Shown: positions 1 through 7,037, numbered from the stretch's first letter. The stretch is DNA of 14,086 bases from a virus (IMGVR_UViG_2531839468_000012); one strand, 5' to 3'. Notes: generated by a model from the sequence alone, not told the origin. Translations and numbers: made by a program.

Positions 1-1
1 A

Positions 2-778
2 GTGATCCGTCGTGCTGGTGGCGTGGAATGTCTTGAAAGCTGGTTACTTCGTGAAAAAGGCTGCCAGTGGCCTCATTCCGACTGGCACAGCGAGAACATG
101 ACCACAATGCGACACGCGCCGGGCGCAATCCGTCTGTGCTGGCACTGCGATAATCAGTTACGTGATCAGTTCACGGAGCGGCTGGAATCAATGGCAACGG
201 ATAACTGTGCCCATTGGGTGTTGTCTGTAGTCCGTCGGGATCTCGATTTTAATGATAACCATGCCGTGACAATGCCGGAACTGTGCTGGTGGCTGGTTCG
301 TAATGACCTGGCGGATGCCTTACCGGAAAGCGCAGCCCGTAAGGCACTGAGATTACCGAAGTCTGTTTTGCCGTCTGTCACCCGGGAAAGTGACCTTGTG
401 CCTTCGGTTCCTGCCACCAGCATTATCCAGGATAAAGCGAAAAAGGTGCTGGCGCTGAAAGTGGATCCGGAGTCGCCGGAGTCTTTTATGTTACGCCCCA
501 AACGTCGTCGCTGGGTTAATGAACAGTACACGCGCTGGGTTAAGACGCAGCCGTGTGCATGTTGTGGAAAGCCAGCTGATGATCCGCATCATCTGATAGG
601 CCATGGTCAGGGTGGAATGGGTACAAAAGCGCATGACCTTTTTGTGCTGCCTTTGTGCAGAAAACACCACGACGAACTGCATGCGGATACCGTGGCATTT
701 GAAGAGAAGTATGGCTCCCAGCTGGAGCTGATATTTCGTTTTATCGATCGCGCACTGGCGATTGGTGTGCTGGCCTGA
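2..778 (+). CDS. DUF968-family phage protein (YdfU-like), 5' partial at window edge, with C-terminal Cys/His-rich HNH-like motif
   Basis: ORF is open to the window start and ends at TGA 776-778. C-terminus carries CACCGK...HHLIGHG...CRKHHDELH, a zinc-finger/HNH-like spacing. It lies directly upstream of Q, as ydfU does relative to the Q homologue in Qin-type prophages (from memory). Confidence 0.55.
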
Positions 779-795
779 TTTTGTGGAGAAAGTTA

Positions 796-1179
796 ATGCG
801 TGATATTCAGATGGTTCTTGAACGTTGGGGAGCGTGGGCGGCTAATAATCATGAAGATGTGACCTGGTCGTCCATTGCCGCCGGTTTTAAGGGATTAATT
901 CCTTCAAAAGTAAAATCTCGCCCGCAATGTTGTGACGATGACGCGATGATCATTTGCGGGTGCATGGCCCGTCTGAAAAAGAACAACAGCGATTTGCACG
1001 ATTTATTAGTAGATTATTATGTAGTCGGTATGACATTCATGTCACTGGCAGGTAAGCATTGCTGCTCTGATGGTTATATCGGGAAAAGGTTACAGAAGGC
1101 TGAGGGCATAATTGAAGGGATGTTAATGGCATTAGATATCCGGTTAGAGATGGATATCGTTGTTAATAACTCTAATTAA
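796..1179 (+). CDS. Q: Late-gene antiterminator Q, phage 82 / DLP12 QuuD type (127 aa)
   Basis: ATG at 796 with GGAG 7-8 nt upstream; the ORF-track start at 781 is TTG and less likely. Protein begins [24 protein letters not shown] and ends [11 protein letters not shown], which matches my recollection of DLP12 QuuD. Position is the one expected for Q: after the nin-type region and before the lysis genes. Confidence 0.8.
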
Positions 1180-1212
1180 TATGCCAATTGTTTACTGAAA
1201 GTTATTAAAAAT

Positions 1213-1230
1213 GGGGCGTTGCAACGCCCC
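1213..1230 (-). terminator. Perfect 18-bp palindrome GGGGCGTTGCAACGCCCC; intrinsic-terminator candidate for minus-strand (porin) transcripts
   Basis: Perfect inverted repeat. On the minus strand it is followed by ATTTTTAATAAC (T-rich). On the plus strand it is followed by CAAAAATAAA, so it is not a good plus-strand terminator. Confidence 0.4.
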
Positions 1231-1296
1231 CAAAAATAAAGGGTAATATATAACAGAAGGTTTATATAGTTAGAAGCAAGGTTGTGCTCCTAAAGG

Positions 1297-1318
1297 AAGT
1301 GGCTTGAGGGAGCCACTT
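1297..1318. other. Stem-loop AAGTGGCT-tgaggg-AGCCACTT (8-bp stem) between the convergent Q and porin genes
   Basis: Perfect 8-bp inverted repeat with a 6-nt loop. No adjacent U-tract on either strand, so function is unclear. Confidence 0.3.
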
Positions 1319-1320
1319 AT

Positions 1321-1358
1321 ATGTTGGGGAGGCAACGCCTCCCGCAACATATCTTTTT
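1321..1358 (+). terminator. Hairpin plus T-run; candidate tR'-like terminator of the short late leader RNA, or a bidirectional terminator
   Basis: ATGTTG-GGGAGGC-aac-GCCTCCC-g-CAACAT forms a long GC-rich stem (1321-1350) followed by ATCTTTTTCG on the plus strand. It lies about 140-180 bp downstream of the Q stop, where lambdoid phages place pR' and tR'. Confidence 0.35.
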
Positions 1359-1368
1359 CGTAATCAGA

Positions 1369-2466
1369 TTAGAACTGGTAAACCAGACCTACAGCAACGA
1401 TGTCATCAGTGCTTACACCGAGTGCTTTAGTGAAGTCATTTTTGTCAAGCAGGTTGATTTTGTAATCAACGAAAGTAGACATATTTTTGTTGAAGTAATA
1501 GGTTGCACCTACATCAACATATTTGACTAAGTCCTGATCGCCCCATACTCCAAGATCCTTACCTTTAGATTGCAGGTAAGCAACGGACGGACGCAGACCG
1601 AAATCGAACTGATATTGTGCAACAGCTTCGAAGTTTTGAGCTTTATTAGCAACGAAGTGATCAGCAAATACAGTCATATTCTGGGTTTCAGAATAGGTAG
1701 TGGCCAGGTAAATGTTGTTAGCGTCATATTTCAGACCTGCGGCCCAAACTTCTGCATTTTTACCGGAAGCAAATACTTCAGGAAGAACTTTCCCTGCATT
1801 AACTTGAGTGTCGGTACGATCAGATTTCGCATAAGTTGCACCGATACCGAATCCTTCGTATTCATAGGTAGCAGAGAAACCGAAGCCATCACCGTTACCT
1901 TCGGTGTAGTTATCGAAATCGCTACGATCGTTTTTGCCTTGGTACTGAGCAGCAAAGTTCAGACCATCAACCAGACCAAAGAAGTCGTTGTTACGATAGG
2001 TTGCAACACCAGTGGTGCGACCAGTCATGAACACATCTGTTTGGGTCCAGGTATCGCCACCGAATTCTGGCAGAACGTCAGTCCACGCACCGATGTCGTA
2101 TGCTACACCGTAGTTACGGCCGTAATCGATTGAGCCGTAGTCACCGAATTTCAGGCCTGCAAATGCAAGACGGGTTTTGTCTTTGGAGGAACCTTGAGAT
2201 TCAGCGCGGTTGCCTTTGAATTCATATTCCCACTGACCGAAACCAGTCAGCTGATCGTTGATTTGGGTTTCGCCTTTGAAGCCCAGACGAACATAAGTAG
2301 TATCACCATCATCTGCATCGTTAGAGGAAAAGTAGTGCTTGGCATTAACTTTCCCGTACAGATCCAGCTTGTTACTGTCTTTATTATAAATTTCAGCTGC
2401 CTGAGCAGACATCGCCATCAGTACTGATGCAGCTACAGCAGAAATTGCCACTGTTAATTTTTTCAT
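1369..2466 (-). CDS. nmpC: Outer-membrane general porin, phage-encoded NmpC/Lc (OmpC/OmpF family), 365 aa
   Basis: Signal peptide [23 protein letters not shown] followed by AEIYNKD. Mature protein has OmpC-like beta-barrel sequence (e.g. [28 protein letters not shown]) and the C-terminal VGLVYQF ending in Phe. ATG at 2464-2466 (complement) and TAA at 1369-1371 (complement). It sits between Q and the holin on the opposite strand, as lc does in phage PA-2 and nmpC in DLP12. Confidence 0.85.
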
Positions 2467-3010
2467 CGTGAGCCCTTTTTTTTGAACTATTATTAAAAAA
2501 TAGATGTCACTGCGCGATAAATATTCATCTAATCAATGTGATTATTTCAAGATGTAAGTTTTAGTTTCTCATTTAATTTGTGAAGTAGATCTCTATTTTT
2601 ATCTGAACTTTTTCTATCGAAACCTATTTATGGCTCTTATTTGAACAAAAATAAACCTATTAGCTAATTTATATTAATGGCTGTTATTTATGGTGGTTCT
2701 ATAATTCGTCTGTTTAATTTAAACCAGCTAAAAATAACACTGGAAATTATTTATTGTTTATTTGTTGAAGTTTTCTTATGTATTTGTGGTGATGTTTTGA
2801 ACACTCGGTAGCATTCTCATAAATATCATTCAGTGGTTTACGTACGTAAAAAATTGGTTATGCTGTTAAGAGTGGTTACTTCGTCACACAGCTTAAACCC
2901 GCCGTCGAGCTGGTTTTTCCATTTTTTGAGTCTCGATATTAGCTGATAACTCAATACCTGAGTTATTCACTGACTCGGAGTCAGTTACGTTTCTGCTTTT
3001 TTGCGATACG
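2467..3010. promoter_or_regulatory. AT-rich 544-bp intergenic region: porin promoter/regulatory region (minus strand) and 5' leader of the lysis genes (plus strand)
   Basis: No ORF of 60 aa or more, very AT-rich, directly upstream of the porin ATG. Around 2538-2570 the minus strand reads TTACATCTTGAAATAATCA, which resembles the OmpR box TTTACATTTTGAAACATCTA. A weak hairpin plus T-run lies at 2968-3003 on the plus strand. Confidence 0.4.
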
Positions 3011-3057
3011 TTGTATTCCCTCAATTTACACCCGCTTTGTCTGCGAGGTGGGGTTAT

Positions 3058-3271
3058 GAAATTCATGGATAAGTTAACAACTGGAGTCGCCTATGGCACC
3101 TCAGCAGGTAGTGCCGGTTACTGGTTTTTACAGCTGCTCGATAAAGTCACTCCCTCACAGTGGGCAGCAATAGGTGTGCTGGGTAGCCTGGTATTTGGCC
3201 TGCTGACGTACCTGACAAACCTTTATTTCAAGATTAAAGAAGATAAGCGCAAGGCTGCGAGAGGTGAATAA
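3058..3271 (+). CDS. S: Class II pinholin, phage 21 S type, 71 aa, with dual-start motif (antiholin start 3058, holin start 3067)
   Basis: [26 protein letters not shown]... resembles S21 (from memory). Two in-frame ATGs are separated by Lys-Phe (M-K-F-M). GAGGTGGGG Shine-Dalgarno at 3045-3053. Two hydrophobic segments and a charged C-terminus [13 protein letters not shown]. Stop TAA overlaps the next ATG (TAATG). Confidence 0.8.
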
Positions 3272-3768
3272 TGCCTCCATCATTACGAAAAGCCGTTGCT
3301 GCTGCTATTGGTGGCGGAGCAATTGCTATAGCATCAGTGTTAATCACTGGCCCAAGTGGTAACGATGGTCTGGAAGGTGTCAGCTACATACCATACAAAG
3401 ATATTGTTGGTGTATGGACTGTATGTCACGGACACACCGGAAAAGACATCATGCTCGGTAAAACGTATACCAAAGCAGAATGCAAAGCACTCTTGAATAA
3501 AGACCTTGCCACTGTCGCCAGACAAATTAACCCGTATATCAAAGTCGATATACCGGAAACAACGCGCGGCGCTCTTTACTCATTCGTTTACAACGTGGGT
3601 GCTGGCAATTTTAGAACATCGACGCTTCTTCGCAAAATAAACCAGGGCGATATCAAAGGCGCATGTGATCAGCTGCGTCGCTGGACATACGCTGGCGGTA
3701 AGCAATGGAAAGGCCTGATGACTCGTCGTGAGATTGAGCGTGAAGTCTGTTTGTGGGGGCAACAGTGA
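3271..3768 (+). CDS. R: SAR endolysin (signal-anchor-release lysozyme, T4-lysozyme-like GH24), phage 21 R type, 165 aa
   Basis: N-terminal Gly/Ala-rich weak transmembrane segment [20 protein letters not shown], typical of a SAR domain. Glu-Asp-Thr catalytic spacing in [17 protein letters not shown]. Start is translationally coupled to the holin stop. Confidence 0.85.
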
Positions 3769-4226
3769 GCAGAGTAACCGCGATTATATCCGCTCTGATT
3801 ATCTGCATCATCGTCAGCCTGTCATGGGCGGTCAATCATTACCGTGATAACGCAATCGCCTACAAAGTCCAGCGCGACAAAAATGCCAGAGAACTGAAGC
3901 TAGCGAACGCGGCAATTACTGACATGCAGATGCGTCAGCGTGATGTTGCTGCGCTCGATGCAAAATACACGAAGGAGTTAGCTGATGCGAAAGCTGAAAA
4001 TGATGCTCTGCGTGATGATGTTGCCGCTGGTCGTCGTCGGTTGCACATCAAAGCAGTCTGTCAGTCAGTGCGTGAAGCCACCACGGCCTCCGGCGTGGAT
4101 AATGCAGCCTCCCCCCGACTGGCAGACACCGCTGAACGGGATTATTTCACCCTCAGAGAGAGGCTGATCACTATGCAAAAACAACTGGAAGGAACCCAGA
4201 AGTATATTAATGAGCAGTGCAGATAG
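3765..4226 (+). CDS. Rz: Rz i-spanin (inner-membrane spanin subunit), lambda type, 153 aa
   Basis: GTG at 3765 gives [29 protein letters not shown]..., an N-terminal transmembrane helix followed by a coiled-coil periplasmic domain. It overlaps the endolysin stop (GTGA). GGGGG lies 7 nt upstream. An alternative GTG at 3753 would add 4 aa. Confidence 0.85.
3985..4167 (+). CDS. Rz1: Rz1 o-spanin lipoprotein, 60 aa, embedded in the +1 frame of Rz
   Basis: [24 protein letters not shown]... has a lipobox (VVGC) and a proline-rich mature region [15 protein letters not shown]. It is fully nested inside Rz in a different frame, the classic lambda arrangement. Confidence 0.8.
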
Positions 4227-4257
4227 AGCTGACCATATCGATGGGCAACTCATGCAA

Positions 4258-4551
4258 TTATTTTGAGCAATACACACGCGCTTCCAGCGGAGTATAAATG
4301 CCTAAAGTAATAAAACCGAGCAATCCATTTACGAATGTTTGCTGGGTTTCTGTTTTAACAACATTTTCTGCGCCGCCACAAATTTTAGCTGCATCGACAG
4401 TTTTCTTCTGCCCAATTCCAGAAACGAAGAAATGATGGGTGATGGTTTCCTTTGGTGCTACTGCTGTCTGTTTGTTTTGAACAGTAAATGTCTGTTGAGC
4501 ACATCCTGTAATAAGCAGGGCCAGCGCAGTAGCGAGTAGCATTTTTTTCAT
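4258..4551 (-). CDS. bor: Bor lipoprotein (serum-resistance, Iss-like lysogenic-conversion protein), 97 aa
   Basis: MKKMLLATALALLITGCAQQ... has a signal peptide with lipobox LITGC. Length and position (32 bp after Rz, opposite strand) match lambda bor. Confidence 0.85.
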   Translation of the reverse strand: MKKMLLATALALLITGCAQQTFTVQNKQTAVAPKETITHHFFVSGIGQKKTVDAAKICGGAENVVKTETQQTFVNGLLGFITLGIYTPLEARVYCSK

Positions 4552-4841
4552 GGTGTTATTCCCGATGCTTTTTGAAGTTCGCAGAATCGTATGTGTAGAA
4601 AATTAAACAAACCCTAAACAATGAGTTGAAATTTCATATTGTTAATATTTATTAATGTATGCCAGGTGCGATGAATCGTCATTGTATTCCCGGATTAACT
4701 ATGTCCACAGCCCTGACGGGGAACTTCTCTGCGGGAGTGTCCGGGAATAATTAAAAACGATGCACACAGGGTTTAGCGCGTACATGCATTGTATTATGCC
4801 AACACCCCGGTGCTGACACGGAAGAAACCGGACGTTATGAT

Positions 4842-5375
4842 TTAGCGTGGAAAGATTTGTGTAGTGTTCTGAATGCTCTCAGTAAATAGTAATGAATTAT
4901 CAAAGGTATAGTAATATCTTTTATGTTCGTGGATATTTGTAATCCATCGGAAAACTCCTGCTTTAGCAAGATTTTCCCTGTATTGCTGAAATGTGATTTC
5001 TCTTGATTTCAACCTATCATAGGACGTTTCTATAAGATGCGTATTTCTTGAGAATTTAACATTTACAACCTTTTTAAGTCCTTTTATTAACACGGTGTTA
5101 TCGTTTTCTAACACAATGTGAATATTATCTGTGGCTAGATAGTAAATATAATGTGAGACATTGTGACGTTTTAGTTCAGAATAAAACAATTCACAGTTTA
5201 AATCTTTTCGCACTTGATCGAATATTTCTTTAAAAATGGCAACCTGAGCCATTGGTAAAACCTTCCATGTGATACGAGGGCGCGTAGTTTGCATTATCGT
5301 TTTTATCGCTTCAATCTGGTCTGACCTCTTTGTGTTTTGTTGATGATTTATGTCAAATATTAGGAATGTTTTCAA
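4842..5375 (-). CDS. Hypothetical protein, 177 aa, AT-rich; corresponds to the lambda right-arm ORF between bor and cos (possibly YbcV/DUF1398-like 'putative envelope protein')
   Basis: Long ORF in a very AT-rich segment with no recognisable catalytic motif. Collinear with the lambda region downstream of bor. The family assignment is from memory and tentative. Confidence 0.45.
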
Positions 5376-5537
5376 TTAATAGTATTGGTTGCGTAACAAA
5401 GTGCGGTCCTGCTGGCATTCTGGAGGGAAATACAACCGACAGATGTATGTAAGGCCAACGTGCTCAAACCTTCATACAGAAAGATTTGAAGTAATATTTT
5501 AACCGCTAGATGAAGAGCAAGCGCATGGAGCGACAAA

Positions 5538-5744
5538 ATGAATAAAGAACAATCTGCTGATGATCCCTCCGTGGATCTGATTCGTGTAAAAAATATGCTT
5601 AATAGCACCATTTCTATGAGTTACCCTGATGTTGTAATTGCATGTATAGAACATAAGGTGTCTCTGGAAGCATTCAGGGCAATTGAGGCAGCGTTGGTGA
5701 AGCACGATAATAATATGAAGGATTATTCCCTGGTGGTTGACTGA
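5538..5744 (+). CDS. Small acidic hypothetical protein, 68 aa (YbcW-like)
   Basis: ATG at 5538 preceded by GGAGCGACAAA. Followed by an 8-bp-stem hairpin GTGACAGA...TCTGTCAC at about 5780-5812. Divergent from the 177-aa ORF. Size and position match DLP12 ybcW (from memory). Confidence 0.4.
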
Positions 5745-5908
5745 TCACCATAACTGCTAATCATTCAAACTACTTAACCTGTGACAGAGCCAACACGCAG
5801 TCTGTCACTGTCAGGAAAGTGGTAAAACTGCAACTCAATTACTGCAATGCCCTCGTAATTAAGTGAATTTACAATATCGTCCTGTTCGGAGGGAAGAACG
5901 CGGGATGT

Positions 5909-6103
5909 TCATTCTTCATCACTTTTAATTGATGTATATGCTCTCTTTTCTGACGTTAGCCTCCGACGGCAGGCTTCAATGACCCAGGCTGAGAAATTCC
6001 CGGACCCTTTTTGCTCAAGAGCGATGTTAATTTGTTCAATCATTTGGTTAGGAAAGCGGATGTTGCGGGTTGTTGTTCTGCGGGTTCTGTTCTTAGTTGA
6101 CAT
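5909..6103 (-). CDS. Small basic protein with ribbon-helix-helix-like pattern, 64 aa (YlcI/DUF3950-like), possible DNA-binding regulator
   Basis: MSTKNRTRRTTTRNIRFPNQMIEQINIALEQKGSGNFSAWVIEACRRRL: basic N-terminus, then a short beta-strand (RNIRFP), helix (QMIEQINIALEQ), turn and helix (FSAWVIEACRRRL), consistent with a CopG/Arc-type fold. Confidence 0.45.
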   Translation of the reverse strand: MSTKNRTRRTTTRNIRFPNQMIEQINIALEQKGSGNFSAWVIEACRRRLTSEKRAYTSIKSDEE

Positions 6104-6302
6104 GAGGTTGCCCCGTATTCAGTGTCGCTGATTTGTATTGTCTGAAGTTGTTTTTACGTTAAGTTGATGCAGATCAATTAATACGATACCTGCGTCATAA
6201 TTGATTATTTGACGTGGTTTGATGGCGTAGATGCACGTTGTGACATGTAGATGATAATTATTATCATTTTGTGGGTCCTTTCCGGCGATCCGACAGGTTA
6301 CG

Positions 6303-6314
6303 GGGCGGCGACCT
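6303..6314 (+). other. cos: cosN: lambda-type 12-nt cohesive-end site GGGCGGCGACCT (terminase nicking site; left end of the packaged genome)
   Basis: Exact GGGCGGCGACCT preceded by ...CGACAGGTTACG (lambda right terminus) and followed by CGCGGGTTTTCGCTATTTATGAAAATTTTCCGG (lambda left terminus), as I recall the lambda sequence. Confidence 0.8.
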
Positions 6315-6491
6315 CGCGGGTTTTCGCTATTTATGAAAATTTTCCGGTTTAAGGCGTTTCCGTTCTTCTTCGTCATAACTTAATGTTTTTATTTAAAATA
6401 CCCTCTGAAAAGAAAGGAAACGACAGGTGCTGAAAGCGAGCTTTTTGGCCTCTGTCGTTTCCTTTCTCTGTTTTTGTCCGTGGAATGAACA
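6315..6491 (+). promoter_or_regulatory. cosB region: gpNu1/IHF binding elements between cosN and the Nu1 start
   Basis: Position relative to cosN and Nu1. Contains repeated CGTTTCC-type elements and a 12-bp inverted repeat AGGAAACGACAG (6414-6425) / CTGTCGTTTCCT (6452-6463). Confidence 0.5.
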
Positions 6492-7011
6492 ATGGAAGTC
6501 AACAAAAAGCAGCTGGCTGACATTTTCGGTGCGAGTATCCGTACCATTCAGAACTGGCAGGAACAGGGAATGCCCGTTCTGCGAGGCGGTGGCAAGGGTA
6601 ATGAGGTGCTTTATGACTCTGCCGCCGTCATAAAATGGTATGCCGAAAGGGATGCTGAAATTGAGAACGAAAAGCTGCGCCGGGAAGTTGAAGAACTGCG
6701 GCAGGCCAGCGAGACAGATCTCCAGCCAGGGACTATTGAGTACGAACGCCATCGACTTACGCGTGCGCAGGCCGACGCACAGGAGCTGAAAAATGCCAGA
6801 GACTCCGCTGAAGTGGTGGAAACCGCATTCTGTACTTTCGTGCTGTCGCGGATCGCAGGTGAAATTGCCAGTATTCTCGACGGGATCCCCCTGTCGGTGC
6901 AGCGGCGTTTTCCGGAACTGGAAAACCGACATGTTGATTTCCTGAAACGGGATATCATCAAAGCCATGAACAAAGCAGCCGCGCTGGATGAACTGATACC
7001 GGGGTTGCTGA

Positions 7012-7037
<26 letters not shown>
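6492..7037 (+). CDS. Nu1: Terminase small subunit gpNu1, 181 aa
   Basis: MEVNKKQLADIFGASIRTIQNWQEQGMPVLRGGGKGNEVLYD... has an N-terminal winged-HTH DNA-binding motif and matches lambda Nu1 in length. The 3' end overlaps the A start. Confidence 0.9.

Follow-up and report, generated by a model that had tools for sequence, protein, structure and literature searches.

Gene content and layout of the window

The analysed window, a 14,086-nucleotide stretch of viral DNA (IMGVR_UViG_2531839468_000012), covers the late regulatory signals, lysis genes and head genes of a lambdoid phage, as judged from its ORF listing and Pfam scans (Table 1). The interval of principal interest, 1180-2466, consists of a 189-bp spacer downstream of the antiterminator gene Q and a 1098-bp porin gene. 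A preliminary description of the locus had presented this porin as a minus-strand gene of about 1.1 kb lying between Q and the holin, and both the ORF listing and the Pfam scans agree with it. The protein encoded by Q (quuD in RefSeq) shows 78-82% identity to its counterparts in Shiga-toxin phages and 95-100% identity to those in porin-bearing phages; an alternative start, an ATG at 796, would give the 127-aa form that is annotated in PhiR29_1. The latter is the closest complete phage, with 99.7% identity over bases 700-3300, and many isolated lambdoid phages share 91-99% identity with the same stretch. Holin, lysozyme and Rz form a lysis cassette (3056-4226) with which the late unit begins. 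No tRNA genes were found in the window, and an Rfam scan of positions 1-7000 at E <= 1 returned only chance matches to microRNAs and snoRNAs.

Table 1. Coding and regulatory features of the window, in order of position; regulatory assignments are putative.
Feature	Position	Strand	Basis and remarks
DUF968 protein	2-778	+	ORF listing and Pfam
Antiterminator Q, 82/933W type, quuD-like	781-1179	+	PF06530, E 1e-53, full-length match
Terminator-like hairpin GGGGCGT/ACGCCCC, then ATTTTTAA	1213-1230	-	Terminator scan
Tandem hairpins	1297-1318 and 1319-1352	both	Folding
Porin (Lc/NmpC/OmpD-like)	1369-2466	-	PF00267 Porin_1, E 2e-156; 365 aa
AT-rich control region, GC about 0.29-0.33	2467-2836		Composition
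Late promoter pR', 82/933W type	2837-2864	+	Homology to mapped pR'
Leader hairpin CCCGC/GCTGG with T-run	2898-2902/2909-2913; T-run 2914-2918	+	Folding; +30 to +50
Further leader hairpins	2945-2967 and 2969-2985; T-run 2997-3002	+	Folding; before holin ATG 3056
S21-type holin/antiholin	3056-3271	+	PF04971; ATGs at 3056 and 3065 in frame
SAR-type lysozyme	3271-3768	+	PF00959
Rz	3753-4226	+	PF03245
Bor	4258-4551	-	Pfam
DUF1398/YbcV gene	4842-5375	-	Pfam
DUF3950 ORF	5909-6103	-	
Nu1	6492-7037	+	Head genes follow

The porin belongs to the lc/nmpC cassette

Residues 29-365 of the porin cover all 337 positions of the Porin_1 profile (PF00267, positions 1-337, E 1.8e-156), leaving a 28-residue leader ahead of the porin domain; the record for Lc of phage PA-2 annotates a signal peptide of 23 residues. 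The C-terminal residue is Phe, the last codon (1372-1374) reading TTC on the minus strand. By these traits the protein is a Gram-negative general porin of the OmpC/OmpF/PhoE/NmpC/Lc group. Over its 365 aa the protein is 99.2% identical to PA-2 Lc (J02580.1), and it is 99.1% identical to the IS5-interrupted NmpC copy in phage 434B, which corresponds to DLP12. Conversion by PA-2 Lc is classical, and the GenBank record backs the identity of the gene. The locus is the classical lc/nmpC cassette, a member of a kind that is already known. With lc of PA-2 and nmpC of DLP12 (qsr') it shares the protein, the position from Q to S-R-Rz, the opposite orientation, and an AT-rich upstream region in which J02580.1 annotates CRP sites; the nmpC of K-12 and the copy in 434B carry IS5, whereas the window porin does not, and there is otherwise essentially no difference. 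The annotation of the homologous region in 434B shows a lysis-gene layout that matches the window. Of 5426 complete E. coli genomes, 2396 (~44%) contain the block comprising Q, porin and holin at a query coverage of at least 80%, DLP12 nmpC included; in RefSeq the block is annotated quuD, porin, essD and rrrD.

That the porin is expressed in lysogens, as a case of lysogenic conversion, was proposed in the preliminary description and is well founded, both in the near-identity to PA-2 Lc and in what has been reported for a relative: the NmpC porin of Perceval, a prophage of LF82, is a moron transcribed 10-fold above the prophage background (PMC9928086). The architecture of Perceval is that of the window, with Q followed by a minus-strand porin and then by the late promoter motif described below. 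By analogy with Perceval, then, the window porin is best regarded as a lysogen-expressed conversion gene (moron). Two further traits of morons are found here: terminator hairpins lie downstream of the porin and an AT-rich region with PA-2-annotated CRP sites lies upstream of it, and the same Q family and promoter block occur elsewhere without an insert, with the porin, or with an ORF6N-domain gene. Since the work on PA-2 and DLP12 it has been known that this porin cassette exists, where it lies and that lysogens express it.

Convergent hairpins between Q and the porin

The terminators that the preliminary description had associated with the porin have counterparts in terminator-like hairpins of the 189-bp spacer between Q and the porin stop codon. 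This spacer is strongly structured, with z-scores of -4.2 (plus strand) and -7.1 (minus strand), and nearly invariant across 73 related loci. The hairpin at 1213-1230 has a predicted stability of -13.9 kcal/mol, equalled in 0 of 200 shuffles, and would be the outermost putative stop for porin transcripts ahead of Q. The tandem hairpins with their flank (1297-1358) fold at -34.8 kcal/mol (z -6.1) when read as plus strand and at -34.2 kcal/mol (z -6.8) when read as minus strand. Reading rightward, the second of them (1319-1352) is followed by CTTTTT (1353-1358), about 10 nt short of the porin stop codon, and would stop plus-strand transcripts leaving Q; reading leftward, the pair is followed by UUCCUUU and is a possible first terminator for the porin. 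The spacer hairpins can be read as convergent terminators, which would end the early operon downstream of Q and would stop the porin transcript before it reaches Q.

A putative late promoter block between the porin and the holin

In Shiga-toxin phages the start of the late promoter has been mapped by dRNA-seq and the 3' end at tR' by Term-seq, the two being 258 nt apart (PMC7547250). The stretch directly after Q in Stx2 phage II (L002 2925-3006) aligns with window 2836-2918 at a local score of 64, against 21.5 +/- 2.7 (maximum 33) for 300 dinucleotide shuffles, and a global alignment of window 2837-2926 with its Stx2 II counterpart has 63 of 91 positions identical. The block at 2836-2918 sits between porin and holin, and is the only sequence in the window that is homologous to the mapped Stx late promoter. 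By this homology we assign a putative pR' to 2837-2864, with a -35 element TTTACG (2837-2842) and a -10 element TATGCT (2859-2864) separated by 16 nt, the same spacing as in Stx phages. A 43-nt pattern running from the -35 through the spacer and the -10 to the eleventh transcribed base matches the window once, at 2837-2879, with 0 matches expected by chance. A built-in promoter scan with a threshold of 9/12 reported no promoter in either of the spacers that flank the porin, pR' included; since pR' scores 8/12 against the consensus, we ran our own scan at 8 of 12.

It may be mentioned that the depositors of Stx2 phage II annotated a 'putative -35/-10' at L002 3094-3119. This is about 140-160 bp downstream of the start that the 258-nt spacing of PR' and tR' implies, and the GenBank promoter annotation is therefore off the mapped pR'.

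Overlapping the -35 element of the window pR' is a perfect 14-bp palindrome, TTTACGTACGTAAA (2837-2850). Shiga-toxin phages carry TTTACGATCGTAAA at their -35, which is also a perfect palindrome, and the common form of the two is TTTACG(NN)CGTAAA. The palindrome is a candidate target of a dimeric protein and may be the element to which Q proteins of this family bind. Wherever a locus has room for both, the pR' motif is accompanied by a Q of this family (PF06530). A full-text literature search for the string AGAGTGGTTAC gave no relevant match.

The base 258 nt upstream of the point where the tR' T-run of Stx2 II ends is an A that aligns with window 2869, in keeping with the mapped length of StxS. 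The same +1 places GCC at +15-17 of the Stx sequence, which is where GCC has been reported in the pause region of phage 82 pR' (PMC5001585). Since two independent published numbers (258 nt; GCC at +15-17) converge on this start site, we place the putative +1 of the window late transcript at about 2869-2871 by homology. The U at +25/+26 (2893-2894), corresponding to the phage 82 pause positions, is kept in the window, and the -10-like hexamer at +9 to +14 reads TACTTC, with 2/6 matches to TATAAT and without the usual final T (TACATT in Stx phages). A sigma-dependent pause is predicted at about 2893-2894, with this qualification as to the hexamer.

The first leader hairpin (2898-2918) follows the predicted pause, and would act as a terminator in the absence of Q. 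Its stability is only -5.4 kcal/mol in the window; most relatives have -11.6, and Stx2 II has -12.1. Most porin-bearing relatives read CCCGC...GCGGG-TTTTT at this position, whereas the window and PA-2 have T at 2911, a G-to-T change that is common to PA-2 and about 30 IMG/VR loci and that could allow leakier expression of the late and lysis genes in this lineage. Further downstream, the hairpins at 2945-2985 have no adjoining T-run; the stretch 2945-3002 that holds them (-17.1 kcal/mol, z -2.4) has a non-canonical geometry and may serve as a back-up terminator.

The late module of phage 82, H-19B and 933W (Shiga-toxin phages), with its StxS leader RNA, is homologous to the window in its Q family, promoter, initial transcribed region and first hairpin. 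The differences are of position and of detail. The promoter of Stx phages directly adjoins Q or overlaps its 3' end, whereas that of the window is separated from Q by 1.66 kb and a convergent gene; the window leader past the first hairpin is unrelated to that of Stx phages, so that the 3' part of StxS is missing; the pause hexamer is TACTTC rather than TACATT, with GTC in place of GCC at +15-17; and the first terminator hairpin, unlike that of Stx phages, contains the destabilising T2911.

The spacer between Q and the porin was compared with the pR' block in the same manner. Local alignment found nothing significant there, with a score of 17 against 18 +/- 2 for shuffles and, in a second alignment, 13 against 16 +/- 2. 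The sole promoter-like site on the plus strand of this spacer, in our own scan, is a weak GTAATA-16 nt-TATAGT (1243-1270, 8/12). A MAFFT alignment had given about 60% resemblance to pR' at 1240-1300, suggestive of a relic Q-proximal promoter; this candidate was rejected, the local alignment being not significant against dinucleotide shuffles.

Other regulatory signals upstream of the holin

A putative porin promoter on the minus strand can be placed in the AT-rich region at 2467-2836. When the annotation of PA-2 is transferred to the window (by x -> 3958-x), the two CRP sites of that record map to 2575-2595 and 2871-2891. The second of these (GTGGTTACTTCGTCAC, an imperfect inverted repeat) overlaps the first ~20 transcribed bases of the putative pR' transcript, and the CRP annotation and the pause/Q-loading region may be one and the same element.

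The corresponding spacer of DLP12 has been the subject of reporter work. The S-R-Rz operon of DLP12 is described there as controlled by a Q-type antiterminator, RpoE and Hha, and the nmpC-essD spacer is taken to be the region through which Q regulates the lysis operon (PMC7918800). The reporter fragment is described as '-121 to +650' (PMC7918800). Its forward primer matches window 2394-2413; the reverse primer has no exact match in the window, so the fragment is mapped by its forward end only. Because the forward primer starts at 2394, the published +1 (essD promoter) would fall at about 2515, some 350 bp upstream of the pR' start. A sigma-E-like element on the plus strand, TGAACTA (2483-2489), 17 nt, TCACT (2507-2511), coincides with this DLP12-implied +1; the sigma-E reading of 2483-2511 is our own suggestion. 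If real, the element, about 20-50 bp off the porin start codon, overlaps the 5' region of the porin divergently. Both pR' and the DLP12-type promoter would lie beyond the porin start codon, on its right-hand side, and would direct transcription away from the porin.

Three architectures of the Q-promoter interval

A scan of IMG/VR for the core pR' motif yielded 120 loci, on each of which Q, porin, holin and lysozyme were mapped. In every locus that reaches far enough upstream, a Q of this family precedes the motif, and three architectures can be told apart. In the first, which is that of Stx phages, 53 bp separate the end of Q from the motif, and Q is 78-82% identical to that of the window. In the second, represented by ~75 loci with a Q that is 95-100% identical, Q is followed by a minus-strand porin and the motif lies 378 bp beyond the porin start; here Q is ~1.65 kb upstream of the motif, and the holin follows the motif by ~200 bp in all porin loci. 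In the third, a gap of 0.8-1.1 kb is occupied by a plus-strand ORF6N-domain gene of ~190 aa that ends 26 bp before the motif (L052, 1602-2165; similarly L020, L047, L068, L084, L092, L102 and L114). One additional locus has a 3-kb insert between Q and the motif. In this comparison the promoter block stays with the late genes, and the gap between Q and promoter takes up cargo.

A more distant case is Lambda_ev087, whose Q is 88% identical and in which the 82/933W motif is absent. There (L003 3393-4074) Q is followed by a promoter-like TTGCTG-17-TAATGT, by a hairpin (GCCAGCCTCCCC..GGCTGG with T8) that resembles the tR' of StxS, and by a minus-strand lipocalin gene, blc. The late transcript of Lambda_ev087 might have to cross its cargo gene antisense.

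Proposed transcriptional arrangement and alternatives

We hypothesize that the porin constitutes a self-contained lysogenic-conversion cassette (Lc/NmpC), an insertion that separates the gene for Q from the promoter on which Q acts, and we regard this as probable. The sequence itself shows what the genes are, where the pR' block lies and to what it is homologous, which hairpins are present, and how the three architectures are laid out; from these we infer the exact +1, the activity of the promoter, the action of Q at 2837-2864 and the efficiencies of the terminators. Under this arrangement Q, being diffusible, would load onto RNA polymerase at pR' (2837-2864), and late transcription would start at about 2869. 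Without Q, the transcript would stop at the leader terminator at 2898-2918, or perhaps at 2945-3002; with Q, it would run on into S-R-Rz and the head genes. The porin would be transcribed leftward, divergently from pR', by its own catabolite-sensitive promoter in the AT-rich spacer, and its transcript would end at the hairpins at 1297-1352 and 1213-1230, while the plus-strand terminator at 1319-1358 would close the early operon after Q. The cassette would in this way be insulated on both sides, allowing expression in the lysogen without interference in lytic development.

The preliminary description had come to a different conclusion, namely that the porin is antisense within the Q-dependent late transcription unit, so that any Q-antiterminated transcript must read through it to reach the lysis genes. 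This had assumed a pR' directly after Q. A promoter block for the lysis genes is instead found, by homology to a mapped promoter, within 2467-3057, the very interval in which an independent lysis-gene promoter would, by the preliminary description's own account, tell against its model, and the spacer between Q and porin is without significant similarity to it. Because pR' and the transcript that begins there lie beyond the porin and before the lysis genes, Q-modified polymerase would never need to cross the porin and late transcription should not run antisense through it; the proposed antisense silencing by Q-modified polymerase is unsupported.

Among the alternatives, the one that survives best concerns which promoter drives the lysis genes. 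A sigma-E promoter at about 2483-2511, with +1 at about 2515 as for essDp of DLP12, could be their main promoter, in which case the sequence at 2837-2918 would be only an internal terminator or Q-loading site, or vestigial. The DLP12 '-121 to +650' fragment, starting at window 2394, does imply a published +1 at about 2515, a GAACT-N17-TCACT element can be seen at that place, and PMC7918800 cites control of the operon by RpoE. Against this, the block at 2837-2918 is conserved with functional Stx phages. Q-type antiterminators, moreover, need a sigma-70-dependent, promoter-proximal pause beside their binding site. We consider a predominant sigma-E promoter unlikely, and since it too would lie beyond the porin start, it leaves the conclusion on antisense transcription unchanged.

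Antisense transcription of the porin in the lytic cycle might also arise without Q, if the early rightward operon were read through past Q, for example by polymerase under N-type antitermination. In lambda, transcription from pR that has been modified by N extends beyond Q, and in the window Q and the porin are convergent and only 189 bp apart. However, PhiR29_1 has no annotated N gene, no N gene or nut region was found in the window, and a strong plus-strand hairpin with T-run (1319-1358) stands just before the 3' end of the porin. Given the lack of an annotated N in PhiR29_1 and the plus-strand terminator in the way, we give early-operon read-through a low weight and think it improbable.

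The least tenable alternative, which we hold to be very improbable, is that a Q-responsive promoter lies within 1180-1368 after all, and that the late transcript crosses the terminators and 1.1 kb of antisense porin, with silencing or collision as a result: lambda and Shiga-toxin phages do have pR' directly after Q, the weak site at 1243-1270 could be paired with a plus-strand terminator (1319-1358) readable as tR', and Lambda_ev087 has a promoter-like site and tR'-like hairpin between Q and minus-strand blc, but the Q-porin spacer is without significant similarity to the cognate pR' block, the promoter-pause-terminator block at 2837-2918 is found beside the late genes and not beside Q in the ~75 porin-bearing loci, and Q proteins modify only polymerase that has initiated at their own promoter.

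Significance for moron placement and annotation

The lambda morons bor and lom resemble the porin in being lysogen-expressed outer-membrane genes of a lambdoid prophage with their own promoter and terminator. They differ in placement, in that bor is antisense to late transcription whereas the porin, upstream of the late promoter, would escape antisense transcription. In the window, bor, the DUF1398/YbcV gene and the DUF3950 ORF (4258-6103, minus strand, between Rz and Nu1) are in the path of late transcription, as is bor in lambda. The antisense-moron situation that had been proposed for the porin does apply to the bor, DUF1398 and DUF3950 genes instead.

For annotation, the consequence is that in this group of phages pR' is not to be assumed directly after Q, but is to be sought ~190 bp upstream of the holin; predictions of antisense transcription, of toxin or lysis-gene control and of leader sRNAs should be anchored at the pR' that precedes the holin. 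The choice of insertion site alone lets a phage avoid the conflict between a moron and the late operon. It is tempting to go further and to regard the gap between Q and pR' in 82/933W-type modules as a recurrent, insulated docking site for cargo, with terminators facing both ways, a generalization that we advance tentatively, as something short of an even chance. If it is true, a phage could keep a gene that lysogens express strongly next to its lysis switch and incur no antisense conflict, in contrast with morons such as bor that sit inside the late operon.
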